Assembly: GCF_055900595.2 (NCBI RefSeq)
Contig: NZ_CM148325.1
DNA: 64,000 bases
Strand: one strand, 5' to 3'
The translations under genes were made by a program, and so were the position numbers. Shown here piece after piece: positions 1,739-53,638 of the stretch (position 1 is the first letter of the stretch; every line of letters starts with the position of its first letter). The notes beneath the pieces were generated by a model. It was not told the origin of the DNA. It did no database searches and saw only the letters and a program-made list of their open reading frames with translations.

Positions 1739-3121
1739 TTATTGCTGCCAACCGCCACCCAGGGCGGTATATAAGGAAACTTCGTTAACCTGACGGGCAT
1801 AATTCAGGTCGAGTAAAGTTTGTCGGGTTGCAAATAAAGAACGTTCGGCATCCAGCACTTCCAGATAACTTACCGCGCCGTGCTGATATAATGCCCGCGC
1901 CCGTTGCAGGGTAATTTGCAGCGACGCCAGATAACGCTGCTGGGCGCTGATTTGATCGTTCAGGCTTTGACGTAATGCAAGCGCATCTGCCACTTCTTTA
2001 AAGGCGTTCTGAATTTTCTGTTCATAATTCACCACCGACTGCTGCTGGCGAATTTCGGCGATATCCAGATTGGCCTGGTTGCGTCCGGCATTAAAAATGG
2101 GGATCTCAATTTTGGGAATAAAATTCCACATCCCGCTGCTGGCGTTAAATAATGATGACAGATCGCTGCTGGCGGTTGATATTCCACTGGTCAGGCTTAT
2201 AGACGGGAAAAATGCCGCACGCGCAGCACCAATATTGGCATTAGCCGCCATTAACGCGTGTTCAGCTTCCATAATATCCGGGCGCTGCAACAAGATTTGC
2301 GACGACAAGCCCGCCGGTAATTTAACGCTTTGCAGGCTGTCGCTGTTTACTGTCTGCGCTTGCGGCAGCTTGCCGTAGTTTCCCAATAACAGTTGCAATG
2401 CATTATTCGCCTGCGCCAGTTCCCCCTGACGTTTAGCGATATCACTGCGGGTACTTTCTATCACCCCGCGAGCCTGTTCCAGCGCCAGAACATTGCTGCT
2501 ACCAGTCAAAAGTTGTTTTTCGACAAACGCATATGACTGCTGATAATTACGCAGCGTTTCTTCGGCTATTTGTAATTGCGCATAAGCCAGTTGCTGATTG
2601 AAATAGCTTTGCGCGACATTAGAAACCAGCAGAATATGCACCGCGCGCTGAGCTTCCTCAGTGGCTAAATAATTTTGTCGCTCGGCTTCGCTCATGTTCT
2701 TTAAGCGACCGAAAAAATCGAGATCAAAGCTGGCGTTAAGGCCAGTCGAGAACTCCCGCGTCGTGGCTGAATCGCCTTTAAGATTGCCGCTCCAGCTGCC
2801 GCTACCCTCGCCATTGAGCTGCGGGTAGCGGTCGGCATCGGTCAGACGATATTGCGCCCGTGCCTCCTGCACTTTCAGCGTCGCCATGCGCAAATCCCGA
2901 TTATTCACCAGCGCCTCGCTAATCAGCGTCTTCACCTGATTATCAACAAAAAAGGTGCGCCAGCCCGCGTTCTGGTAGTTATCTACCGCGTTAACCAGGC
3001 CGTTCTGGCTGAGTGAGAACTGCTGCGGCACGGGCATTGCCGGACGCTGATATTCCGGTGCCAGTGAACAACCGGTTAGCGCAAGGGCCACACAAAATGG
3101 CAGAAGTTTACAAGGAGACAT
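1739..3121 (-). CDS. cusC: CusC outer-membrane efflux channel lipoprotein (TolC family)
   Basis: 460-aa ORF with lipobox (LTGCS) and outer-membrane factor repeats; divergent from cusRS. Confidence 0.9.
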   Translation of the reverse strand: MSPCKLLPFCVALALTGCSLAPEYQRPAMPVPQQFSLSQNGLVNAVDNYQNAGWRTFFVDNQVKTLISEALVNNRDLRMATLKVQEARAQYRLTDADRYPQLNGEGSGSWSGNLKGDSATTREFSTGLNASFDLDFFGRLKNMSEAERQNYLATEEAQRAVHILLVSNVAQSYFNQQLAYAQLQIAEETLRNYQQSYAFVEKQLLTGSSNVLALEQARGVIESTRSDIAKRQGELAQANNALQLLLGNYGKLPQAQTVNSDSLQSVKLPAGLSSQILLQRPDIMEAEHALMAANANIGAARAAFFPSISLTSGISTASSDLSSLFNASSGMWNFIPKIEIPIFNAGRNQANLDIAEIRQQQSVVNYEQKIQNAFKEVADALALRQSLNDQISAQQRYLASLQITLQRARALYQHGAVSYLEVLDAERSLFATRQTLLDLNYARQVNEVSLYTALGGGWQQ

Positions 3122-3190
3122 AGGCTCATAATTTCTGGTGATTTTATGCCGCCAACTTTACTCGCCAGGCTCTGATTTTCCGGTGACAGG

Positions 3191-35822: not shown

Positions 35823-37151
35823 CTGATGAATCCCCTAATGATTTTGGTAAAAATCATTAAGTTAAGGTGGATACACATCTTGTCATATGATCAAATGGTT
35901 TCGCCAAAAATCAATAATCAGACAACAAAATGTGCGAACTCGATATTTTACACGACTCTCTTTACCAATTCTGCCCCGAATTACACTTAAAACGACTCAA
36001 CAGCTTAACGTTGGCTTGCCACGCCTTACTTGACTGTAAAACTCTCACTCTTACCGAACTTGGCCGTAACCTGCCAACCAAAGCGAGAACAAAACATAAC
36101 ATCAAACGAATCGACCGATTGTTAGGTAATCGTCACCTCCACAAAGAGCGACTCGCTGTATACCGTTGGCATGCTAGCTTTATCTGTTCGGGCAATACGA
36201 TGCCCATTGTACTTGTTGACTGGTCTGATATCCGTGAGCAAAAACGGCTTATGGTATTGCGAGCTTCAGTCGCACTACACGGTCGTTCTGTTACTCTTTA
36301 TGAGAAAGCGTTCCCGCTTTCAGAGCAATGTTCAAAGAAAGCTCATGACCAATTTCTAGCCGACCTTGCGAGCATTCTACCGAGTAACACCACACCGCTC
36401 ATTGTCAGTGATGCTGGCTTTAAAGTGCCATGGTATAAATCCGTTGAGAAGCTGGGTTGGTACTGGTTAAGTCGAGTAAGAGGAAAAGTACAATATGCAG
36501 ACCTAGGAGCGGAAAACTGGAAACCTATCAGCAACTTACATGATATGTCATCTAGTCACTCAAAGACTTTAGGCTATAAGAGGCTGACTAAAAGCAATCC
36601 AATCTCATGCCAAATTCTATTGTATAAATCTCGCTCTAAAGGCCGAAAAAATCAGCGCTCGACACGGACTCATTGTCACCACCCGTCACCTAAAATCTAC
36701 TCAGCGTCGGCAAAGGAGCCATGGATTCTAGCAACTAACTTACCTGTTGAAATTCGAACACCCAAACAACTTGTTAATATCTATTCGAAGCGAATGCAGA
36801 TTGAAGAAACCTTCCGAGACTTGAAAAGTCCTGCCTACGGACTAGGCCTACGCCATAGCCGAACGAGCAGCTCAGAGCGTTTTGATATCATGCTGCTAAT
36901 CGCCCTGATGCTTCAACTAACATGTTGGCTTGCGGGCGTTCATGCTCAGAAACAAGGTTGGGACAAGCACTTCCAGGCTAACACAGTCAGAAATCGAAAC
37001 GTACTCTCAACAGTTCGCTTAGGCATGGAAGTTTTGCGGCATTCTGGCTACACAATAACAAGGGAAGACTCACTCGTGGCTGCAACCCTGCTTACTCAAA
37101 ATCTATTCACACATGGTTACGTTTTGGGGAAATTATGAGGGGATCTCTCAG
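35823..37151 (+). mobile_element. IS10 insertion sequence (1329 bp) with 9-bp target-site duplication
   Basis: Ends CTGATGAATCCCCTAATGATTTTGG... and ...GAAATTATGAGGGGATCTCTCAG; flanked by direct repeats TGCCAAGCA at 35814-35822 and 37152-37160. Confidence 0.95.
35930..37138 (+). CDS. IS10 transposase
   Basis: 402-aa ORF beginning 107 bp inside IS10, matching IS10 transposase sequence. Confidence 0.95.
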
Positions 37152-38301
37152 TGCCAAGCACTACTTTTCCTCTAACGATGCAGATGATGGTGATACTACT
37201 TATGCCCGTCTTGGCTTCAAAGGTGAAACCCAAATCAACGATCAACTGACTGGTTTCGGTCAGTGGGAATATGAATTCAAAGGCAACCGCGCTGAATCTC
37301 AAGGTTCCTCCAAAGACAAAACCCGTCTTGCATTTGCAGGCCTGAAATTCGGTGACTACGGCTCAATCGATTACGGCCGTAACTACGGTGTAGCATACGA
37401 CATCGGTGCGTGGACTGACGTCCTGCCAGAATTCGGTGGTGATACCTGGACCCAAACAGATGTGTTCATGACTGGTCGCACTACTGGTGTTGCAACTTAT
37501 CGTAACAACGACTTCTTTGGTCTGGTCGATGGCCTGAACTTTGCTGCTCAGTATCAGGGTAAAAATGACCGCACTGACGTAACTGAAGCCAATGGTGATG
37601 GTTTCGGTTTCTCCACTACTTATGAGTATGAAGGATTCGGCGTGGGTGCAACCTATGCTAAATCAGATCGCACTGACGGTCAGGTCGCCTATGGTAAGAG
37701 CAAATTCAATGCCTCCGGCAAAAATGCGGAAGTATGGGCTGCAGGCCTGAAATATGATGCGAACAATATCTATCTGGCTACCACATATTCTGAAACTCAG
37801 AATATGACCGTTTTTGGTAATAACCATATTGCAAACAAAGCACAAAACTTTGAAGCAGTAGCACAATATCAGTTTGACTTCGGTCTGCGCCCATCTGTTG
37901 CTTACCTTCAGTCAAAAGGTAAAGACCTTGGTGTTCATGGTGACCGAGACTTAGTCAAGTATGTCGATGTCGGTGCTACTTACTACTTTAATAAAAACAT
38001 GTCCACTTTTGTTGATTACAAAATCAACTTAATTGACGATAGTAAGTTTACCAAAACAGCTGGTATTGATACTGATGACATCGTTGCTGTAGGTCTGGTT
38101 TACCAGTTCTAATCTGATTACGAAAAAGATATGTTGCGGGAGGCGTTGCCTCCCCAACATATAAGTGGCTCCCTCAAGCCACTTCCTTTAGAAGCACAAC
38201 CTTGCTTCTAACTATATAAACCTTCTGTTATATATTACCCTTTATTTTTGGGGGCGTCTCAACGCCCCATTTTTAATAATTTTTAGTAAACAATTGGCAT
38301 A

Positions 38302-38700
38302 TTAATTAGAGTTATTAACAACGATATCCATCTCTAACCGGATATCTAATGCCATTAACATCCCTTCAATTATGCCCTCAGCCTTTTGTAACCTTTTCCC
38401 GATATAACCATCAGAGCAGCAATGCTTACCTGCCAGTGACATGAATGTCATACCGACTACATAATAATCTACTAATAAATCGTGCAAATCGCTGTTGTTC
38501 TTTTTCAGACGGGCCATGCACCCGCAAATGATCATCGCGTCATCGTCACAACATTGCGGGCGAGATTTTACTTTTGAAGGAATTAATCCCTTAAAACCGG
38601 CGGCAATGGACGACCAGGTCACATCTTCATGATTATTAGCCGCCCACGCTCCCCAACGCTCAAGAACCATCTGAATATCACGCATCAACTTACTCCACAA
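38302..38700 (-). CDS. quuD: Q late-gene antiterminator
   Basis: 132-aa Cys-rich ORF ([16 protein letters not shown]...HCCSDGY) upstream of the lysis cassette. Confidence 0.8.
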
Positions 38701-38907
38701 AACTCAGACCAGAACGCCAATTACAAGCAAAAATCAACAAAACAGTATTAGTTGATTGTTATCTCTGACTTCATACTCCTGCTCCTGTCAGTGTTTTGGC
38801 GTAATTCTTCAGTATTCGGTAATCGGTCAAAACAGAGCCGGGGAAACGATATAAGCGCAGACGCCCCCAGCGGTGGCGAAGAAGTTCTGCCATATTAAAC
38901 TCAAACA

Positions 38908-39270
38908 TCATTCATTCCCCATTTCGGTGATGGTCAGTTCCAGCCTCCCACCTTTGGTAACAGGCATCTTCACAACGCGGTAATCAACGACCTGAGCATC
39001 ATCCAGCCAGAAACCTGCTTTAGTGAGTGCGTCAAAAGCGGCTTTTTGCAGATTATCCAGGTCACGGCGACGGCGATCCGGCATGTGGCACTCAATGCGG
39101 ATTTTCACAGGCATAGCCAGGCCGATATCCAGCATTGCGTTTTTAATGATTCGGGCGACGTTATCGCGGTATGCCTGCCCCTCTGCGCTGACGTGCGTGC
39201 GCCCGCGATTATGGCGGTAATAGCGATTATTGCTCGGAGGCCAGGGTAGTGTGATGTGGTAAGTATTCAC
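38908..39270 (-). CDS. rusA: RusA Holliday-junction resolvase
   Basis: 120-aa [34 protein letters not shown]... matching RusA. Confidence 0.9.
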
Positions 39271-39557
39271 GCCTTAATTACCCTCTCTTTCAGCCAGATA
39301 ACCTGCGTTCTCGCCATACCTTCCAGCGCGCATTCTTTTGCATATCCAGCGTCAACAAAATGCGTGCGGCGGTCGATTTCGTCGTGGCAGGCAGAACATG
39401 CAATGGTGGCAATCAGGTCTGGCGGTTTGATACCGGTACCGCACAATCCAGCCAGCCGGATATGTGCCAGTACAGACGTCTCAGAATTGCCATTACATAC
39501 GCCAGGGATTCTTACCTGGCATTCCCGACCACGCGCTGCTTTTCTCAAATCAGCCAT
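39267..39557 (-). CDS. ybcO: YbcO-like nin-region nuclease (DUF1364)
   Basis: ORF 39267-39596; start at [10 protein letters not shown]; Cys-rich ([12 protein letters not shown]...ACSACHDE); overlaps rusA start. Confidence 0.75.
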
Positions 39558-39720
39558 GATTCCTCCTTGCTGCCAGTCGCAACCATTTTTTATCAACCAG
39601 GCTAGCGGTATATCCGAGCAGTGTTGGTATTTCGGATGGCTTCAGCTCAGGCTTACGCTTACGACGATTTGATACTCTGTAGATGTGTCCGTTCATGACA
39701 CGAATAAGCGGTGTAGCCAT
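39550..39720 (-). CDS. ninE: NinE-like small basic protein (below ORF-track cutoff)
   Basis: 56-aa [59 protein letters not shown] read from the minus strand; start overlaps ybcN stop and stop overlaps ybcO start. Confidence 0.6.
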   Translation of the reverse strand: MATPLIRVMNGHIYRVSNRRKRKPELKPSEIPTLLGYTASLVDKKWLRLAARRNHG

Positions 39721-40175
39721 TACGCCTCCTGCTTGTCGCGGAGCAGCTGGAACTCGCAGCTCTGCGGAATAGTCAGGTGGCAGCCAATATTCATCGCCCA
39801 GGCTTCAACCTTACACAGGAAGACATACATCTCTCCGGTATCAAGATTGGAGGTATGGCGTAACGACTGGATAGTGGTGATATCACCGGTTACGACATCA
39901 ACCAGGTCTTTGGTTTCATAACCGAGATATGTGTGTTTGAGAGCATCTTTTACCCAAGCTGGAGTGGCGAACGTTTTACCCCTGCTGATGAGGTATTCAC
40001 TGATTTCGCTGTACCACATGTGGCTGAGTGCATTCTGGGAAAGACTGCGTTTCTCACGCCACGGTTTAAGCACCAGGCGAAAGCATTTGCCCTCCTCCAG
40101 ATAAGGCTGGATCTGCCGACCGATAGCGGTGAAGTTGCCGCGATGTAATTTGATGCCGTCTTGTGAGAGGTTCAC
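39720..40175 (-). CDS. ybcN: NinB/YbcN recombination protein
   Basis: 151-aa ORF matching remembered DLP12 YbcN / lambda NinB family. Confidence 0.8.
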
Positions 40176-40208
40176 GCTTCCCCTCCGCAGAGGTCAAACG
40201 TTGGATGC

Positions 40209-40333
40209 AAAAAAACGCAGGTGCATTTCTGCATCTGTGAAGGGAGAAGAGAGTTTGGATTGTATGTGCGCATAAACGTCCCCGTTTAGCGCAGAAGTCA
40301 CCGGAGTTGTTCAGGCTCCGATGACATGATTAT
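40209..40333 (-). repeat. Direct repeat copy A (~125 bp) with terminator-like hairpin at its 3' end on the minus strand
   Basis: About 85 percent identical to 42596-42720; minus-strand hairpin CAGATGCA-gaaa-TGCACCTG followed by a T7 run (plus-strand 40209-40237). Confidence 0.6.
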
Positions 40334-40359
40334 GGCGGGTTGATTATTGAAAATCAAAG

Positions 40360-41037
40360 TTAATCGTACGAGTCGAGTATGTTCTGAAACGCCCAGCCAT
40401 CCTCCTTAGGAACACAAGACAGAATCGAATGAATTAGATCCCCTGCGGAAAGAAGTAACCCTTCTTGCCCTTCAAGAAAATAACGCCATTTAGGTCCATG
40501 AAACAGATTGTTCCGTAACCGGAAACAAACGAACAAGCACACTGCAAGCTGAGTCTCAGGCTCGGTTGTCATAGCTTGCATGGCTGAAAAACAGTCATCT
40601 CTCGCCTTTTGAGAGGTGTGGTGTAATTCCCCGCATAGGCTTTCAAACTTGCTTTTATCATTTACATAGCGTTCTGAAAAAAAATCGTATGTACACTTGA
40701 GAACCCCCAGATCCACAACCTCCATTTGCAAAAGACGATTGGCATATTTCGCACTTTTGCCTTGCCCCCCAGCGCAATTAAGAAGTAGAGACTCGAAGAA
40801 AGAGAAGTACAAAAAATAACGATTAACGGCGGTAAGGATAGATGGGGTAATCCTGCCTTCTGCATTAATCAACTCGTCAAATTCTGATGAAAAATCCAAC
40901 TGTTCATCCTTTTCCATTATATTCGGCCATTTATTGATATTGCACATCAGTCGCTCTTGGCAATGACAGGTTTGCTCTCGGTAATGTCTCAAACGCCCCA
41001 AAAAGTAGTCTCGCAAATGCTCTAGTTGCTCGCGCAT
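40360..41037 (-). CDS. Hypothetical protein with Rx4-6H (HEPN-like) motif; candidate abortive-infection cargo
   Basis: 225-aa ORF, no recognisable phage core function; contains RLRNNLFHG matching the HEPN Rx4-6H signature. Confidence 0.4.
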   Translation of the reverse strand: MREQLEHLRDYFLGRLRHYREQTCHCQERLMCNINKWPNIMEKDEQLDFSSEFDELINAEGRITPSILTAVNRYFLYFSFFESLLLNCAGGQGKSAKYANRLLQMEVVDLGVLKCTYDFFSERYVNDKSKFESLCGELHHTSQKARDDCFSAMQAMTTEPETQLAVCLFVCFRLRNNLFHGPKWRYFLEGQEGLLLSAGDLIHSILSCVPKEDGWAFQNILDSYD

Positions 41038-41197
41038 AACAACTTCGGCGATAACCGGCTATTCGGTCGTTCTTTATACGCTACGCTTGAAGGCGCAAGG
41101 CCAACGCTTACCTTGTCACGTTCCTATTGCGGTTTTGCTGCAATGTTCCTGTCAGTCTGACATAAAAAACCCCTCAATCATCTGAGGGGATTAGACA

Positions 41198-41398
41198 TCA
41201 TTGCTTCCAATACTTTTGAACCCGGATATTCATTGGCACACAAACATTTTCATAGATAGGGCCGCTAACAGTCATGACTATATAAATACCATCAAGACCA
41301 TCAATATTAAGCGAGAGTCTATCTCCGGCTCTAACCTCACGCTCTAGTTCAATATCTTCTACTCGTCCAGTATCATCGAAAGTCACTGAATACATCAT
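41198..41398 (-). CDS. Hypothetical small protein
   Basis: 66-aa ORF between Bro-N gene and the HEPN-like gene, same strand. Confidence 0.35.
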   Translation of the reverse strand: MMYSVTFDDTGRVEDIELEREVRAGDRLSLNIDGLDGIYIVMTVSGPIYENVCVPMNIRVQKYWKQ

Positions 41399-41560
41399 TT
41401 CAAATTTCCATCTAAGTGCATGAGGTGTCTAACGAAAATACCATAAAGAGAATTTGATTACATTGAACTTTTTCAGTGCTTACTTGGCTTATCTGAAGCC
41501 TTAATCATTGCCGCCCAGTGCGCTACCTGCTTGCATCCATTCAGCGCCTAATATGTAAAA

Positions 41561-42169
41561 CTATTGCAATCTAGCCTGACGCAAATGTGGCAATACCCTG
41601 CTCCACTTATTATCCTGCCAAGGCTGGAATTTTACATGTGCCGTTTTTCTGGCAAGGATTTCGCGCGCCTTATGTAGTATCTGGGGATATTCTTGCTCGA
41701 TAGAAGTAAAGCGACCGGCTTCGCGGTGTTCCGCAACCTGAAGAAGTGGAGTAACGTTCTGGCAGGCGGTTAACATCGTATCACTTGCTCGCCATAACCA
41801 AGCAAGTGTGCAAAGTTCGTTATCAGTGAATTGTTTTGTGATCGGGGATTGTTGAACTTCTCGATCGAGAATATCCAGAACCCAGCGGCGGAACTCTTTG
41901 GCTACAGGAGTTCGTGCAAACATGGCGATCAAATGGGCTCCGCGAAGGCTAAATACTCGAGACTCCTGCATTCCACGAGGGGTGGTCACTTTGACCACCC
42001 TTGTCATCATATCTGTAAATTCATCTGAGTGACGAGAGTAAATGCGCTGAACTGCTTTATCGTCCGCATATTCCAGAGCTAAACCAACTTCAGTGGCAGT
42101 AAGCCAAATTCTGTTATTGTGGCAAATTGGGGTAAACGTCGTTTTGTGGAATGCTAATTGAGTAGTCAT
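41561..42169 (-). CDS. Bro-N domain protein (antirepressor-like)
   Basis: 202-aa ORF; N-terminal half fits Bro-N pattern (F..F.....RI.LTATEV..ALEY...RIYSRHSDEF...RVF...G..LIA....TPVAKEFRRWVLDIL). Confidence 0.6.
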   Translation of the reverse strand: MTTQLAFHKTTFTPICHNNRIWLTATEVGLALEYADDKAVQRIYSRHSDEFTDMMTRVVKVTTPRGMQESRVFSLRGAHLIAMFARTPVAKEFRRWVLDILDREVQQSPITKQFTDNELCTLAWLWRASDTMLTACQNVTPLLQVAEHREAGRFTSIEQEYPQILHKAREILARKTAHVKFQPWQDNKWSRVLPHLRQARLQ

Positions 42170-42595
42170 AGTATCACCTCATCAGGTTAACCATCACCAC
42201 CAACGACGCCAATCGACTGGTGGTGAACTGTGCAAGGTTGGCGTAACCGGCTACTCAAACCCGGCGCTCCCGAAGAAGCCCTCACACAGCCCACCATAAT
42301 TTGGGCGTAGCCGTGCTTAGCGCATAAAAAAACCGCTTAACGCGGTATGCGTTGAGTAGTATTCCGGGACGCCAATCCCGTGTGCCGATTTTGCGGCAAC
42401 GCACAGAATATAGCGCCGGATAAATAATGTCGTCAACCCTTGCAAATGGGTGGCGCGATGATCACTACTACCACTATAACCGCTCCAACTGTTGCAACTA
42501 CTTTAGGCCAAGACATCAAGATTTCCATATCACCTTTAGCTGCGAAACGAACAGAGGTTCCCATCTCTATACTGCCGAGGCCAAACACCGAATAT

Positions 42596-42720
42596 AAAAA
42601 ACCGCAGGTGCATTTCTGCATCTATGACGGGAGAAGATAGTTTGGATTGTGTGGGCTCATAAACTCCCCGTTTGGTGCAGTAGTCACCGTAGTTGTTCAT
42701 ATTCTGATGACATGATAATT
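42596..42720 (-). repeat. Direct repeat copy B (~125 bp), paralogue of 40209-40333
   Basis: Aligns base-for-base with copy A at about 85 percent identity; weaker hairpin plus T-run on minus strand. Confidence 0.6.
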
Positions 42721-42917
42721 TCCTATTGAATAGAAAAAATTAACACTACTCATTCTTATGACTAGAAAAAGCAATCATGCTAATAATCATTGTTGTTCCA
42801 GTTCCAAATGCAGCGAAATAATCACTAATATTTTTTCTACCGGTTTCGACTTTGATGCTATATTCTGCTAACACCTAACTAACACTACGTTTCACACAGC
42901 AATTACATGGAAATAAC

Positions 42918-43265
42918 ATGACTATCAAAGCGACTGACATAGAGATTCTTCATCGTTATGCTGAAGGGGTAATGGAACGTTCTAACCATCATGCAAAAAA
43001 TGTTGGTGCAGCCGCTCTTACATTGCTAGGAGGTGTTATCTGGAAAGCCCTGCCCGGCTCAATCGAGATAAGAACGTATAACGGAAGTCTTGCAAATATG
43101 GTGTGGTGGCAAAGCGAAAGAACATTAAAAAATTATGCAATCTCATACAACCATAATTCATGTGAAATTGAAATGAGAGATGAATCAGTCAAAGGTGCTG
43201 TATTATTTAGCATTTCCAACGAAACCACTCCAGAAAAAATATTATCACAGCTTTCTGAGCTTTAA
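42918..43265 (+). CDS. Hypothetical protein, opposite strand to the surrounding early-right operon
   Basis: 115-aa ORF with AT-rich upstream region and a GGCGGTG-ctaa-CACCGCC hairpin right after its stop. Confidence 0.45.
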   Translation: MTIKATDIEILHRYAEGVMERSNHHAKNVGAAALTLLGGVIWKALPGSIEIRTYNGSLANMVWWQSERTLKNYAISYNHNSCEIEMRDESVKGAVLFSISNETTPEKILSQLSEL

Positions 43266-43469: not shown

Positions 43470-44171
43470 TCATACACTTGCTCCTTTCAGCCCAAACTTA
43501 GCTTTGATTTCTGCGATCTTCGCCAGAGCCTGTGCACGATTTAGAGGTCTACCGCCCATGACAGGAAGTTGTTTTACTGGTTCAGGTATCGCCTCACCAC
43601 GGTTAATTCGCGCGGTCATACAGGTCAGCTCATCGGCAGCTTTACGCCGTAATTCCGCGTCAGTCAGCGCATTGGCCCGCATGTTCTGGTACAGGTTGGT
43701 AACCAACCAGTAGTGCGCGTTTGATTTCCATGGATAAGACTCTGCGTCCGGATACAGGCCACGCTTCCGGCAATACTCGTAAACCATATCAACCAGCTCG
43801 CTAGCGTTTGGCAGCCCGGCGGTAACGGATGCTTCTTCCCGGCACCAGGCAACAAACTGCCCGGGTGATGGCAGGAATGGTCGATTCTGCCGACGGGCTA
43901 CGCGCATTCCAGCGTTAACCTGTTCCATCGTGGTGATCCCATTTTCCCGGAAAGCCAGAACCCACTGGCGGCGGATTTCGTTCAGTTCGTTCTGGTCACG
44001 GTTAGCCAGGCTCGCAGGGAAAGTTGCCAGTAACTGGCTGAACACACCGTTGATGATCTGCGCTACCTGCTGTACCTGCGGCTTTTCGTCGTACTGTTCC
44101 GGCATGTTGTTGGCGATCCGACGCATCTGCTCACGGTCAAAGTTAACCATCTGTGCGGCGATGTTTTTCAT
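43470..44171 (-). CDS. P: Replication protein P (DnaB helicase loader)
   Basis: 233-aa ORF essentially matching lambda P (MKNIAAQMVNFDREQMRRIANNMPEQYDEKPQVQQVAQIINGVFSQ...). Confidence 0.95.
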   Translation of the reverse strand: MKNIAAQMVNFDREQMRRIANNMPEQYDEKPQVQQVAQIINGVFSQLLATFPASLANRDQNELNEIRRQWVLAFRENGITTMEQVNAGMRVARRQNRPFLPSPGQFVAWCREEASVTAGLPNASELVDMVYEYCRKRGLYPDAESYPWKSNAHYWLVTNLYQNMRANALTDAELRRKAADELTCMTARINRGEAIPEPVKQLPVMGGRPLNRAQALAKIAEIKAKFGLKGASV

Positions 44172-45097
44172 AGATCAACCCCGTAAATCCAGTCTGTGTT
44201 TGTCAGGTCGAGTTTTGGTTTGCTGGCTGTCACGCCTGCCTGTTGCTTGTTACGGTTGATTTCGAGCTGGGTCCACTTGTCGCGGAGTTTGGCCGGACTT
44301 AGCACGTTACCGGACCAGAAGTTGTCCTGGCATGCCCAGCGGAACAGCACGCACATGTCGCGGTGGTTACGTCCGTCACGTTCACGCATCAGGCGGATAT
44401 CGTTAGCCCACCCTGCAAAATTCGGTTTTCTGGCTGATGGCGCGATGGTCTTCACCATGTCAAACATCCACTCTGCGGCGGTCAGGTCTTCTGCTGTCCC
44501 CCACTTGCTGCCGCTCTGAATCGCAGCATCCGGTTTCACCACAGGAAGGTCGTTTTCTGGCTGATCAGAGGATTCGCCAGAATTCTCGGACGAATAAGGT
44601 TTTATATTGTCTTTTGTTAGTTTGTCTTTTGTGTTTACCTGATTCGGGTAAACGCCTTTACCTGATTTGGGTAAACTTTTCTTACCTGATTCAGGTAAAT
44701 TTACCTCTTTCAGGTAAACTTTATTTTTCTTACCTGATTCGGGTAATGTTGACCATTCACTGACCACATTATTAATACCGATATTCCGCCCGCTCTGAAT
44801 CAAAATCCCACGCTTTACCAGAACACTTTTTGCAGCAGAACACTTGTGCGGTAATATCTCGGTCAATCCAGACAGTTGCTCGTTGCTCACCCAATCCAGT
44901 TTTTTATTAAAGCCATATGTTTTGCGCATGACAGCCAGGAAGACCAGAAGCTGGTGCTGTGTTAATCCGGCCAGCATCACAGCTTCCAGCAACTCATTTG
45001 CAATGCGCGTATAACCATCATCGAGATCTGCCACGCGCGGCTCCTTTTGTGCCGCATCCGGCACTGGAAAATTGAATATCTCAGCAGTGTTTGCCAT
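44168..45097 (-). CDS. O: Replication initiator O
   Basis: ORF 44168-45187; start placed at MANTAEIFNFPVP by analogy with lambda O; iterons lie inside the gene; C-terminus conserved with lambda O. Confidence 0.85.
   Translation of the reverse strand: MANTAEIFNFPVPDAAQKEPRVADLDDGYTRIANELLEAVMLAGLTQHQLLVFLAVMRKTYGFNKKLDWVSNEQLSGLTEILPHKCSAAKSVLVKRGILIQSGRNIGINNVVSEWSTLPESGKKNKVYLKEVNLPESGKKSLPKSGKGVYPNQVNTKDKLTKDNIKPYSSENSGESSDQPENDLPVVKPDAAIQSGSKWGTAEDLTAAEWMFDMVKTIAPSARKPNFAGWANDIRLMRERDGRNHRDMCVLFRWACQDNFWSGNVLSPAKLRDKWTQLEINRNKQQAGVTASKPKLDLTNTDWIYGVDL
44635..44747. repeat. ori-lambda-type iterons inside the O gene
   Basis: Five 18-bp repeats of TACCTGATTCGGGTAAAC type (44635, 44658, 44682, 44701, 44730) with an adjacent AT-rich run. 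Confidence 0.85.
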
Positions 45098-45183
45098 AAT
45101 TCCTCCCGCAATGAGTGTGTTACGATTTGCACCTGAAAGTCGGTTCTGTTCCAGCAGACCGGCTTTCGCCATTTCTGAACCTG

Positions 45184-45723
45184 TCATATCGCCCCCAGCA
45201 TGGTAGTAACCATCGCCATCAATGGACCAGCCAGATCTGGGTCCACACGAAACATCGATACAATACCTTCACTAATTTCCTTCAGTTTCTGGTGGCGTGG
45301 TGCGTTGAGAATGACAGCCTGTTTTGCCTCACTGAGTTCCTTTTCCATTTCAGCCAGCCGAGCTATGAAGCTATCCTGCTCAACCAGGTGGCCGCGATAT
45401 TCCAGCGGTAGTACCGCCAGAATTGCCGGGGTCAGTTCACGCACGTTATTTCGGTATTTTTCAGAATCGAATTTGTTATCGAGGAAGCGGAACAGCTTCT
45501 GGCGTGCACGGCTGACATCATCAGGGAAATCGATGGTGCCGCCGCCCTGCTCCCGATACTCATTCACAATGAGTGCGGCAACGACATCCTGATTATCTAC
45601 AGCCGACCAGGCGCGGACGGCATCACGGATTTTTTCGTGGCCTGGAGCTTGTTTTGTTTGAGAACGATTTATCACCGCAGTCGGGCTAAATCCGCTAGTC
45701 TGTTGGTATGTAAGTGGTTGCAT
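45184..45723 (-). CDS. YdaT/CII-position regulatory protein (function uncertain)
   Basis: 179-aa ORF located between the cro-like gene and O, the slot occupied by cII in lambda and ydaT in Rac. Confidence 0.45.
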   Translation of the reverse strand: MQPLTYQQTSGFSPTAVINRSQTKQAPGHEKIRDAVRAWSAVDNQDVVAALIVNEYREQGGGTIDFPDDVSRARQKLFRFLDNKFDSEKYRNNVRELTPAILAVLPLEYRGHLVEQDSFIARLAEMEKELSEAKQAVILNAPRHQKLKEISEGIVSMFRVDPDLAGPLMAMVTTMLGAI

Positions 45724-45792: not shown

Positions 45793-46023
45793 TTAAGCTG
45801 CGTTCTTTTCAGTGTGTGGAAACAACTTCGGAAGATCCGGGCGAATCTGGTATGCCTTCACTACTCCACCAGTAGCCGTAACAATGCTGCCGACATGTTC
45901 AGGGGATACCTTTGCTTTGTTGTGAAGCCACTTATAGACGGCCTGCTGTGAAACTTCGCAGGCAGCGCCTAGTTTCTTTTGTGAACCAACGATATTGATC
46001 GCTGTTTTGATGGCTGGGTTCAT
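45793..46023 (-). CDS. Cro/YdaS-like HTH regulator
   Basis: 76-aa ORF divergent from cI with HTH-like segment (LGAACEVSQQAVYKWL). Confidence 0.7.
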   Translation of the reverse strand: MNPAIKTAINIVGSQKKLGAACEVSQQAVYKWLHNKAKVSPEHVGSIVTATGGVVKAYQIRPDLPKLFPHTEKNAA

Positions 46024-46127
46024 AACAACCTCCGTGGTTAATTTGAATCAAGATTAAAACTATGGTTGTTTTTAGTCAACAACCATTTTCGTTTGATGAA
46101 ATAAAACCTTGGTTGTACATTTGGACT
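46024..46127. promoter_or_regulatory. Immunity-region divergent promoter/operator region (OR-like)
   Basis: Intergenic between cro-like and cI genes; inverted repeats built on GGTTGT/ACAACC (ATGGTTGTTTTTAGTCAACAACCAT, AACCTTGGTTGTACA). Confidence 0.55.
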
Positions 46128-46817
46128 ATGAAAACAACACTCTCAGAAAGACTTAAAGAAGCCAGATTAGCGCGAGGCCTTACACAAAAGGCGCTTGGGG
46201 ATTTGGTCGGGGTTAGCCAAGCAGCTATTCAGAAAATCGAAACAGGGAAAGCTAACCAAACAACTAAAATCGTGGAGATCGCGAACGCTTTGGGTGTGCG
46301 CGCAGAATGGTTATCTTCTGGCGTTGGAAATATGTCAGACAGTACAGTGCAACCAATACAAACAACTGTCAGCCATTCCAAATACTTTAAGATTGACGTT
46401 CTTGATATCGAAGTGAGTGCCGGGCCGGGAGTCATCAACCGTGAGTTTGTAGAAGTTCTACGTTCGGTTGAGTATTCGTTTGACGATGCTCGTCACATGT
46501 TCGATGGCAGGAAGGCGGAAAATATCCGTATCATTAACGTACGCGGTGACAGCATGTCAGGAACGATCGAACCAGGTGATCTGCTATTCGTTGATATCAC
46601 TGTTAAATCTTTCGACGGTGATGGTATCTATGCGTTTCTGTACGACGACACAGCCCATGTAAAGCGCCTGCAAATGATGAAGGATAAACTGCTGGTTATC
46701 TCTGATAACAAGAGCTACTCACCGTGGGACCCAATCGAGAAAGACGAGATGAACCGGGTATTCATCTTCGGGAAAGTCATCGGGAGCATGCCGCAGACGT
46801 ATAGGAAGCATGGATAA
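46128..46817 (+). CDS. cI: CI-type repressor (HTH plus S24 LexA-like autopeptidase domain)
   Basis: ORF 46062-46817; start at MKTTLSERLKEARLARGLTQKALGDLVGVSQAAIQKIE (HTH); C-terminal S24 motifs (RGDSMSGTI, KRL). Confidence 0.85.
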   Translation: MKTTLSERLKEARLARGLTQKALGDLVGVSQAAIQKIETGKANQTTKIVEIANALGVRAEWLSSGVGNMSDSTVQPIQTTVSHSKYFKIDVLDIEVSAGPGVINREFVEVLRSVEYSFDDARHMFDGRKAENIRIINVRGDSMSGTIEPGDLLFVDITVKSFDGDGIYAFLYDDTAHVKRLQMMKDKLLVISDNKSYSPWDPIEKDEMNRVFIFGKVIGSMPQTYRKHG

Positions 46818-46912: not shown

Positions 46913-47638
46913 ATGGAAGAACGTGGGAATTACCTAATAGACCCCCTAGAAGTAATTGGTTCTGGCGGTTTTGGCCTTGTAGAAAAAATAAGGTTATATA
47001 ACTCACAAAGAAAAATTTGTGGTCTATATGCCAGAAAAATTTTACGACCTGATGCAACAGATCCTGAACTCTTTACCAGATTTGAACGAGAAGTAAGATA
47101 TCAAACTGAATGCCTGCATACTAATATTGTCCAAATATTCATATGCCACTTACAGAATGCTCAGCCTTGGTTCGTAATGGAACTAGCAGAAACAAATCTT
47201 GAAGAAGAAATAAAAAGTGGAACTCTTACAAAGGCTGAAAAAATCTCTATTGTAAAAATGGTACTAAATGCCGTCGGATGGATTCATAAGAAAGGATATC
47301 TTCATCGGGATATAAAACCACTAAATGTACTAAAATTTAAAGATGGAATTTATAAGTTATCTGACTTCGGCCTTGCAAAAAATGTGTCACCAGATGCCAA
47401 TACACAGCTATTAACACAAATTGGCCAATACCCCGCTACTCCTAAATACTTTGATTACAACGTTTTCCTCAACGGATATTCAAAACAATCAGATATATAT
47501 TCAATTGGTATTTTAATTGAAGAATTAAATATTGATGGTTTTGATGATATAATAAACAAATGTACGCATAGACAACTTAACAAAAGATTCCTGACCGTAG
47601 AGCAGATCTTTGAGGAATTGGAGTTGAAACGCTTATGA
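46913..47638 (+). CDS. Eukaryotic-like (Hanks-type) Ser/Thr protein kinase, minimal 241-aa form
   Basis: Gly-rich loop GSGGFGLV, catalytic loop HRDIKPLN, DFG (SDFGLAK); very AT-rich; directly downstream of cI in the rexAB slot. Confidence 0.8.
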   Translation: MEERGNYLIDPLEVIGSGGFGLVEKIRLYNSQRKICGLYARKILRPDATDPELFTRFEREVRYQTECLHTNIVQIFICHLQNAQPWFVMELAETNLEEEIKSGTLTKAEKISIVKMVLNAVGWIHKKGYLHRDIKPLNVLKFKDGIYKLSDFGLAKNVSPDANTQLLTQIGQYPATPKYFDYNVFLNGYSKQSDIYSIGILIEELNIDGFDDIINKCTHRQLNKRFLTVEQIFEELELKRL

Positions 47639-53561: not shown

Positions 53562-53638
53562 TGGCGCGCCCTGCAGGATTCGAACCTGCGGCCCACGACT
53601 TAGAAGGTCGTTGCTCTATCCAACTGAGCTAAGGGCGC
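53562..53638 (-). tRNA. argU: tRNA-Arg (UCU anticodon), prophage attL
   Basis: Reverse complement gives GCGCCCTTAGCTCAGTTGGATAGAGCAACGACCTTCTAAGTCGTGGGCCGCAGGTTCGAATCCTGCAGGGCGCGCCA, cloverleaf-compatible with CCA end. Confidence 0.9.

Follow-up and report, generated by a model that had tools for sequence, protein, structure and literature searches.

In phage lambda, the early-right transcript meets the terminator tR2 directly upstream of the first nin gene, in the 73-nucleotide (nt) gap between ren and ninB, where a hairpin (CAGGCCUGC...GCAGGCCU, -15.7 kcal/mol) is followed by U5AU3. In the pyrBI- and pyrE-type attenuators of Escherichia coli, a leader open reading frame (ORF) covers the terminator hairpin together with the U-rich tract, a ribosome close behind prevents the hairpin from forming, and the sequence of the peptide is largely unconstrained. 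A third set of records, orf33 of phage 82, ylcH of E. coli K-12 and the inverted repeat 'IR4' of phi80, concerns a single element that is known there from bare annotations. The stretch analysed in this study (64,000 nt of NCBI RefSeq assembly GCF_055900595.2, contig NZ_CM148325.1, hereafter the window) contains a lambdoid prophage with its early-right operon on the minus strand. Two direct repeats in its nin region, copy A next to the ybcN-type first nin gene and copy B farther upstream, enclose a set of inserted genes, and both were found to belong to this element.

The interpretation we favour, with a probability of roughly 0.55, is that both repeats are copies of one conserved nin-leader cassette, that this cassette acts as a translation-coupled leader or attenuator, and that cargo was inserted in it by recombination. 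Copy A is the canonical nin-operon leader (orf33 in phage 82, ylcH in K-12) upstream of ybcN, and it contained the following features.

40172-40357, minus strand: copy A, the complete leader element from the -35 hexamer to the ylcH/orf33 stop codon, directly upstream of the ybcN-type gene (96% identity to X92588; covariance-model score 73.6 bits).
40329-40357, minus strand: predicted promoter, with -35 TTGATT at 40357-40352, a 17-nt spacer and -10 CATAAT at 40334-40329 (promoter scan).
40297-40325, minus strand: stem-loop 1 (SL1), GUCAUCGGAG-CCUGAACAA-CUCCGGUGAC, -14.5 kcal/mol, with a conserved loop.
40268-40292, minus strand: stem-loop 2 (SL2), GCGCUAAACG-GGGA-CGUUUAUGCGC, -12.1 kcal/mol, annotated as IR4 in phi80.
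40172-40273, minus strand: ylcH/orf33 leader ORF of 33 codons, running through SL3, with a TGA that overlaps the GTG start of ybcN (GTGA).
40209-40237, minus strand: stem-loop 3 (SL3), the hairpin at 40237-40218, then CG, then U7 at 40215-40209; -7.3 kcal/mol.
40174-40201, minus strand: stem-loop 4 (SL4), a hairpin burying the ribosome-binding site and start codon of ybcN.

The first-pass annotation of the window had described two direct repeats of about 125 base pairs (bp) with about 85% identity, and this description was borne out. In a global alignment of the minus strand, 40209-40333 (copy A) and 42596-42720 (copy B) matched in 108 of 126 columns (85.7%), with a single 1-nt indel. The copies have the same orientation at a spacing of 2387 bp, and a covariance model built from relatives found only these two matches in the 64 kb searched (73.6 bits for copy A and 38.2 bits for copy B). 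The homology was wider than had been noted, running from the -35 hexamer (40357 in copy A and 42743 in copy B) to about 15 nt beyond the T-run, where it fades. Each copy ends on the minus strand in a hairpin and a T-run, as the first-pass annotation had it. The hairpin is CAGAUGCA-GAAA-UGCACCUG in copy A, and the variant in copy B begins with UAGAUGCA. The form common to both is (C/U)AGAUGCA-GAAA-UGCACCUG, followed by CG and U7 in copy A and by CGG and U6 in copy B.

Copy A was 96% identical to the start of the phage 82 record X92588 (orf33-orf151). The annotations ahead of orf151 in that record are all putative and consist of a promoter, an inverted repeat labelled 'possible regulator-binding site', a ribosome site and orf33; the inverted repeat corresponds to SL1. 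The same layout appears in RefSeq E. coli genomes as a 102-nt hypothetical gene before ybcN, and the K-12 Term-seq table places ylcH 98 nt upstream of ybcN. Of 5426 complete E. coli genomes, 4254 had the element in one version or another, and no genome had more than four copies. It was also found in phi80, HK639, HK225, Klebsiella phage KO-TP1 and Enterobacter phages (CobraSix), and the gene directly 3' of it in these phages was always of the YbcN or the NinB/Orf type. One contig scan, with a gap range that left out the 82-type, returned Enterobacter and Trabulsiella loci only. Neither copy matched any family in Rfam 15, even at E values up to 5. While orf33, ylcH and IR4 are old, bare annotations, the RNA structure of the element, its coupling logic, its ubiquity and its role as a recombination joint appear to be undescribed.

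About 175 unique variants of the element were collected from IMG/VR via two independent anchors and from phage and E. coli records. Covariation was read from an alignment based on the covariance model; an alignment made with MAFFT and RNAalifold mis-registered SL2. The ungapped pairwise identity was highest at SL3 (0.95), against 0.26 upstream of -150 and about 0.37 on the downstream side. A decayed copy was seen at 2965-3175 of the loci L131 and L133 (E. coli KMi006 and ET776), at the end of an emrE-ybcL-ybcM prophage remnant between fliE and yedK. Directly next to this copy is an IS200/IS605 tnpA/tnpB insertion, which explains the 'tnpA' labels on low-identity BLAST matches. This copy has lost the ATG of the leader ORF and 5 of 20 positions in the SL3 region, and its decay indicates that the invariance of the element elsewhere is due to selection.

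The conservation of the element begins at its promoter. Pairwise identity was random (0.26) upstream and rose exactly at the -35 hexamer. Of the 111 unique relatives compared, 89 kept TTGATT, 80 kept CATAAT and 101 kept the 17-nt spacing, and one subgroup with other upstream sequence carried TGnTATAAT at the same position instead. Judged by sequence, the element has a sigma-70 promoter that is conserved in position and in sequence in about 100 of the 111 variants and is presumably active. A palindrome, TTGAT-N8-ATCAA (40335-40357 and in relatives), overlaps the -35 hexamer and the spacer, with conserved arms around a variable centre, a pattern that resembles the operator of a dimeric protein. 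FNR and IHF were rejected for this palindrome on inspection, as spacing and consensus did not fit, and the spacing was likewise unfit for CRP. In one paper, ylcH RNA is listed as 2-fold higher under microaerobic growth (PMC8910356).

Folding and covariation across the homologues agreed with the suspicion of a structured RNA. SL1 had two-sided changes in 11 of 11 pairs (94-96% of cells paired), and SL2 in 7 of 10 pairs (98% of cells paired). In the controls for these two stem-loops, none of 500 shuffles reached the observed values, and slid controls were paired in 26-47% of cells. The loop of SL1 is conserved as (C)CUGAACA(A/C), with the core YUGAAC. The loop of SL2 is Shine-Dalgarno-like (GGGGA, GGGAA or GUGGA) and lies 6-7 nt ahead of an ATG or GTG. 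The start codon of ylcH/orf33 (40273-40271), which is AUG or GUG among the relatives, sits in the 3' arm of SL2.

Two classes of antitermination RNA were considered for these hairpins. A boxB/nut site was set aside on inspection, as the SL1 loop cannot close into a GNRA-like pentaloop over a paired stem and boxA is missing. The put antiterminator RNAs of HK022 and HK639 came into consideration for the two adjacent hairpins; both N-type and put-type phages carry the element, and put sites sit just downstream of PL and PR. A UUCUGC motif was observed after both SL1 (GAC-UUCUGC-GC, 40293-40299) and SL3 (CGAU-UUUCUGC-AU, 40205-40214) in all relatives. A 3' end mapped in K-12 lies within the first of these copies, and the motif may be a shared stop or processing signal.

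Downstream of SL1, the element is organised around a conserved, coupled upstream ORF, which the first-pass annotation had not seen. The leader ORF was intact in 174 of the 175 unique elements, and in 169 of 175 it had at least 28 codons and a stop that overlaps the next start as ATGA or GTGA. It is 31, 32 or 33 codons long. The spacer between SL2 and SL3 is G-poor and differs among phage types (at least six), the six spacer types are all in frame, indels are multiples of three, and SL3 lies at codons 12-19 in every type. The leader peptide is poorly conserved: its N-terminal half differs between types, the ribosome site of the next gene determines its C-terminal tail, and variants of SL3 rewrite QKC to L-x-G. 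Since the peptide varies and the frame and the hairpin are kept, translation and not its product seems to matter. The last hairpin of the element, SL4, had its Shine-Dalgarno bases paired in 72 of 77 unique tails and occurred in three sequence types with energies of -12 to -17 kcal/mol.

The stem of SL3 has only 7 standard pairs and an A.C mismatch. Its 20-mer (GATGCAGAAATGCACCTGCG) was exact in 114 of 141 unique sequences, which had been ascertained without this region. In the variant class CAGAUGC-UUAAC-GGCACCUG and its relatives, A-U is changed to U.G and the loop is replaced, and in the variant CCGAUGCAGAAAUGCACCGG A-U is changed to C-G. The short hairpin was kept in both and was 99.6% paired with two compensated pairs, so that the terminator-like hairpin of the first-pass annotation covaries in its short form. 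Because the SL3 variants change the peptide and keep the hairpin, the constraint at this place is on the RNA. A longer SL3 hairpin from minimum-free-energy prediction (AUGCAGAAA with UUUCUGCAU) was rejected; it was 87% paired, had no compensated pair and was broken in the loop-variant class. Pairing of the linker UUCUGC with GCAGAA of SL3 as an anti-terminator found no support, the linker being unchanged where GCAGAA becomes GCUUAA, which is a weak test in which the search pattern fixed the linker.

These results bear on a simpler explanation, by which the repeats are ordinary early-right terminators equivalent to tR2 and the conservation upstream comes from a small YlcH protein, with no regulation at the RNA level. 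It agrees with the position of the element, with a terminator scan that both copies passed, with the state of copy B, which keeps only this part, and with the annotation of ylcH as a RefSeq gene. A protein under selection does not suit a peptide whose N-terminal half is unconserved between types, whose QKC is replaced by L-x-G and whose C-terminal tail follows the next ribosome site, nor does it suit the synonymous positions of the 20-mer, which are invariant in the 114 of 141 sequences. SL1 moreover lies outside the ORF and covaries strongly, and an ordinary terminator would not be expected from a weak hairpin with an unconserved U-tract. We consider this explanation quite unlikely. The earlier suggestion of paralogous tR2/tR3-like terminators stood as far as position is concerned, the element being found where lambda has tR2. 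It found no support as to kinship and was incomplete as to strength: the hairpin has -7.3 kcal/mol against -15.7 kcal/mol in tR2, the T-run is interrupted in most relatives, K-12 Term-seq lists no 3' end there, and a covariance-model search of lambda 39500-41500 with filters off detected no homology to tR2 (best score 2 bits).

An ORF that runs through a weak hairpin, a locked start codon, a stop-start overlap and a buried ribosome site lead us to propose that translation of ylcH/orf33 gates the nin genes. In the proposed mechanism, the nin genes, and Q further downstream, would be expressed only when a ribosome translates the leader ORF. SL2 would show the Shine-Dalgarno sequence in its loop and hide the leader start codon. 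A translating ribosome would melt SL3, so that the weak terminator or pause could not act, and the same ribosome would melt SL4 and re-initiate at the overlapping ybcN start, while untranslated transcripts would stop or decay. The cassette would in this way do the job of lambda tR2 in a translation-gated manner.

Compared with the described systems, the element resembles lambda tR2 in its place on the early-right transcript, directly ahead of the first nin gene, in having a hairpin with a U-tract and, presumably, in restraining the expression of nin and Q. It differs in that tR2 is a plain strong hairpin with the U-tract directly after it, whereas the element has a weak hairpin within a leader ORF, downstream of a promoter and two further conserved hairpins. 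The pyrBI/pyrE-type attenuators are alike in an ORF that spans the hairpin and the U-rich tract and in a largely unconstrained peptide. Unlike them, the element is without evident nucleotide-sensing logic, and it adds the stop-start overlap, the ribosome site buried by SL4, its own promoter and SL1. The element is best filed in the translation-coupled leader/attenuator class, as a positional analogue of lambda tR2, with a minority possibility that it is a trans-acting RNA too.

Several observations weigh against the coupling model. SL3 is weak (-7.3 kcal/mol) and has CG between the stem and the U-tract, and the U-tract is interrupted in most relatives (AUUUUCU, AUAUUUU, AUUAUCU). At the SL3 U-tract (about 572429-572432), no curated 3' end is listed in the Term-seq tables of K-12 (PMC7815308), a weak negative given that DLP12 expression is low. 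The tables do list, for two conditions, a 3' end 5-6 nt beyond SL1 (572349/572350), which the model leaves unexplained. The +1 frame was also open in 152 of 175 elements, so that the absence of stops does little by itself to demonstrate translation. For SL4, the shuffle control was weak and not discriminating (0.77). The outer 3 bp of SL1 covary yet lie upstream of the predicted transcript start of the local promoter, which calls for an unusual start site or for SL1 acting in RNA that reads through from upstream. The model does not account for the signal by which SL2 is opened, for the role of SL1 or for the adjacent promoter. Finally, the searchable literature contained no experiment on the element and no paper on the function of ylcH.

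The first-pass annotation had named a discrete transcript of about 120 nt as a check, and the public K-12 data gave no sign of one, the sole 3' end listed being that after SL1. They leave some room for an autonomous small RNA (sRNA) gene, transcribed in lysogens, in which the ORF and the coupling would be secondary and the product, either about 115 nt to the SL3 U-tract or about 30-35 nt of SL1 alone, would act in trans on host or phage RNAs via the SL1 loop (CCUGAACAAC) or the C/A-rich single-stranded spacer. The predicted promoter is conserved and conservation begins at its -35 hexamer, the layout of 5' hairpins, a single-stranded stretch and a hairpin with U-tract is typical of sRNA genes, the SL1 loop is conserved on a covarying stem, and the K-12 3' ends right after SL1 are reproducible, though decay intermediates, or transcripts that come from upstream genes and end here, would explain them just as well. 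SL1 and SL2 are also kept in the upstream copies of two loci described below (L004 and L053), which are uncoupled to ybcN. The missing 3' end at the SL3 U-tract and the lack of an Rfam match count against such a gene, as does the spacer, a would-be seed that varies by phage type in contrast to the preserved reading frame; termination at SL3 would also leave the transcript with a truncated ORF that lacks a stop codon. The AgvB, AsxR and Pas sRNAs are located elsewhere, downstream of PR'. An autonomous sRNA gene is therefore a doubtful reading, but one that is to be taken seriously.

Known sRNAs were considered as well. The anti-sRNAs AgvB and AsxR, suggested by the CA-rich spacer, were rejected as they are 51-60 nt long and lie downstream of PR', and the Rfam AgvB model had no match to the repeats. 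The Pas sRNAs and STnc100 were rejected as they are located near Q and the lysis genes. As to the earlier idea that the repeats are two copies of a structured RNA of about 120 nt, each does derive from a structured RNA-coding unit with a conserved promoter, so that the idea is right for the family; it is not right for this copy B, which has lost most of the structure. A bolder version combines both activities: the cassette, present in about three quarters of E. coli genomes, K-12 included, might be an autonomously transcribed dual-function RNA of lambdoid prophages, whose promoter fires in lysogens, whose stable SL1 RNA of about 30-35 nt or leader of about 115 nt acts in trans via the invariant loop (targets could be a related phage entering the cell, or a host RNA or protein), and which gates nin and Q in cis by way of ylcH translation. 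We consider this version rather unlikely.

The repeats had also been proposed as insertion boundaries and recombination joints, and comparison of genomes supported this, with an empty site in two genomes and the two-copy layout recurring around other cargo. A chimeric query for the empty site, in which a single element joined the upstream flank of copy B (350 nt) to the downstream flank of copy A (350 nt), matched E. coli NJS001 and STEC799 in one piece (100% coverage, 95.4% identity), and the insert is therefore exactly bounded by the repeats. The single element of NJS001 is a hybrid, B-type in the promoter and SL1 and A-type from the linker onward. E. coli 2013C_3963 has the same two-copy layout with other inner genes (a 138-amino-acid (aa) protein annotated as HEPN and a 133-aa protein). 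A covariance-model search of loci from two overlapping sets, of 81 and 85 sources, showed six two-copy loci besides the window (L003, L004, L053, L094, L134 and L185), with spacings of 1.2-4.1 kb. Four of them (L003, L004, L094 and L134) have, after the upstream copy, the junction sequence seen in the window and then isrK, C4 and an anti-repressor, and in L053 the copies bracket one 177-aa gene.

Phage Rad52-type recombinases tolerate diverged partners, as 12% divergence costs them only about 100-fold (De Paepe et al. 2014, PMC3945230), and hybrids of phi80 and DLP12 have been made by phage recombinases in this very nin region (PMC3945230). Bet is encoded by a close relative of this prophage. 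Taken together, the empty site, the recurrent two-copy loci and the tolerance of the recombinases argue that the repeats are recombination joints or, more precisely, that the conserved leader is the joint. Phage recombinases would cross over in this island of about 190 bp because it is nearly the only sequence common to otherwise unrelated phages at this position. One such crossover would have put the module of the 62-aa ORF, isrK, C4, ant, the 66-aa ORF, a terminator and a 195-aa R-x4-H protein before the nin operon, with a leader copy on each side. A duplication that arose as a recent neutral accident, without a link to the cargo and with coincidental similarity of the flanks, could account for there being only two copies in the window, one of them degenerate. 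It would not account for the exact match to an empty site or for the six other two-copy loci, four of them with the same junction after the upstream copy, and copies that are 14% diverged and mosaic do not come from a recent tandem duplication; such an accident is highly improbable.

The locus resembles the boundary or 'linker' sequences of mosaic lambdoid genomes in that a conserved island lies between unrelated flanks, with internal crossovers and with empty and filled sites. It differs from plain linkers in that the island is a functional regulatory cassette under purifying selection, and in that recombination left it duplicated in direct orientation around the cargo.

Copy B is a degenerate second leader copy, with the features given below.

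42596-42743, minus strand: copy B (covariance-model score 38.2 bits, many broken pairs).
42743-42738 and 42720-42715, minus strand: weak promoter of copy B, TTAATT and AATTAT.
42711-42683, minus strand: SL1 remnant, -4.0 kcal/mol (-14.5 kcal/mol in copy A).
42678-42655, minus strand: SL2 remnant, -0.9 kcal/mol (-12.1 kcal/mol in copy A).
42624-42605 and 42601-42596, minus strand: SL3 and its U6, both intact.

The orf33 frame of copy B is closed by a TAG, and SL4 is absent. The B-type SL1 was also found in single-copy relatives, which marks it as a variant rather than pure decay, and the lesions in SL2 and in the ORF were specific to this copy B. Under the favoured reading, copy B would no longer serve a coupled gene and would have decayed to a weak promoter and the SL3/T-run hairpin. 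It is now probably only a weak terminator or insulator before the cargo, or is simply decaying.

The cargo between the repeats consists of the following features.

42433-42621, minus strand: 62-aa ORF starting from an internal ATG of copy B, with a hydrophobic segment at its end (putative membrane ORF; residues 16-55 match phrog_4612, 7.3e-13).
42216-42436, minus strand: control region like that of P1 immI and Gifsy-1 (Rfam and promoter scan).
42436-42407, minus strand: promoter-like TTGACG-18-TATATT (promoter scan).
42361-42413, minus strand: c4 target a1b1 (Rfam 40.6 bits, below gathering).
42326-42398, minus strand: isrK (Rfam 60.7 bits, above gathering).
42216-42301, minus strand: C4 antisense RNA (Rfam 72.7 bits, above gathering).
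41561-42169, minus strand: anti-repressor with Bro-N and P22AR_C (Pfam Bro-N 7.6e-10; PHROG anti-repressor Ant families).
41198-41398, minus strand: 66-aa ORF (phrog_38858, 1.1e-50).
41189-41170, minus strand: strong intrinsic terminator, CCCCUCAG-AUGA-UUGAGGGG and U6 (terminator scan).
40360-41037, minus strand: 225-aa ORF, all-alpha, with R-x4-H.

The first-pass annotation had listed the Bro-N gene, the 66-aa ORF and the 225-aa ORF with its R-x4-H motif, all of which were found, and had missed isrK, C4, the 62-aa membrane ORF and the terminator. The cargo has the same order as c4-icd-ant of P1 immI and isrK-orf45-anrP of Gifsy-1 (isrK, C4 RNA, c4 target and anti-repressor). The likeness to these systems concerns the cargo only, and neither repeat matched their RNA families. 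The homologues of the 225-aa ORF are 185-202 aa long, which makes Met31 its likely start (195 aa). The motif RLRNNLFHGPKW (R-x4-H) was invariant in 22 homologues, and the structure model was all-alpha with a mean predicted local distance difference test score (pLDDT) of 83. PADLOC, Pfam and Foldseek searches with this ORF returned nothing decisive, also as regards a HEPN match. Its first 23 codons (40969-41037) match the C-terminal part of DNA polymerase III theta (PF06440, 0.0018), and HK639, KO-TP1 and CobraSix have an intact theta gene next to the element on its upstream side. By this similarity, the theta remnant is a further, putative recombination scar. In the closest relative among complete genomes (E. 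coli 2022CK-00450, locus L005, 7736-8848), the same insert is present and the 225-aa gene is interrupted by IS421; the nin region of this relative has ninE, and that of the window is without it.

The other genes of the early region are listed below.

46062-46817, plus strand: cI.
45793-46023, minus strand: cro.
44168-45187, minus strand: O-like gene with iterons.
43470-44171, minus strand: P-like gene.
39720-40175, minus strand: ybcN-type first nin gene (NCBIfam PRK09741, 4.3e-83; phrog_72, 1.5e-51; PHROG 'NinB/Orf').
39267-39596, minus strand: ybcO-type gene.
38908-39270, minus strand: rusA.
38771-38911, minus strand: ylcG.
38302-38700, minus strand: Q.

Five iteron-like 20-nt repeats (TTTACCTGATTCGGGTAAAC) lie at 44634-44748 within the O-like replication gene and presumably mark the replication origin. 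A 241-aa ORF (46913-47638) with motifs of eukaryotic-type Ser/Thr kinases (GxGxxG, HRDIKPxN) adjoins the cI-like repressor gene. Between P and copy B, a 115-aa gene (42918-43265, plus strand) belongs to phrog_5959 and is named 'Vch_cass14 family protein' in RefSeq; it is kept with the B-type flank in NJS001 and 2013C_3963. Beside Q, a copy of IS10 (35868-37138) lies at the 5' end of an nmpC/ompD-like porin gene (37135-38112) and carries a 402-aa transposase (35930-37138) and RNA-OUT (35868-35937, Rfam 97 bits). We take this disrupted porin gene to mirror the IS5-disrupted nmpC of DLP12 in K-12. The tRNA at 53565-53638 (minus strand) matches the sequence of K-12 argU as in the Term-seq table, and the prophage therefore seems to occupy the DLP12 attachment site.

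The early-right operon of lambda is among the most studied, and yet most of its natural relatives, DLP12 included, carry a covarying cassette and a mini-ORF in place of tR2, a cassette that has apparently never been analysed before. The element is a ready candidate for a new RNA family. The locus also gives a concrete example of a moron swap, in which an anti-repressor controlled by isrK and C4 and candidate defence genes were exchanged, presumably by homologous recombination at a short functional island, and such recombination would explain why this spot is a cargo hotspot. If the dual-function RNA were true, the direct repeats would give each inserted moron its own control unit. If the coupling is true, entry into the late phase through Q would be gated by translation besides N-type antitermination, which would bear on the induction of Shiga-toxin and other prophages.

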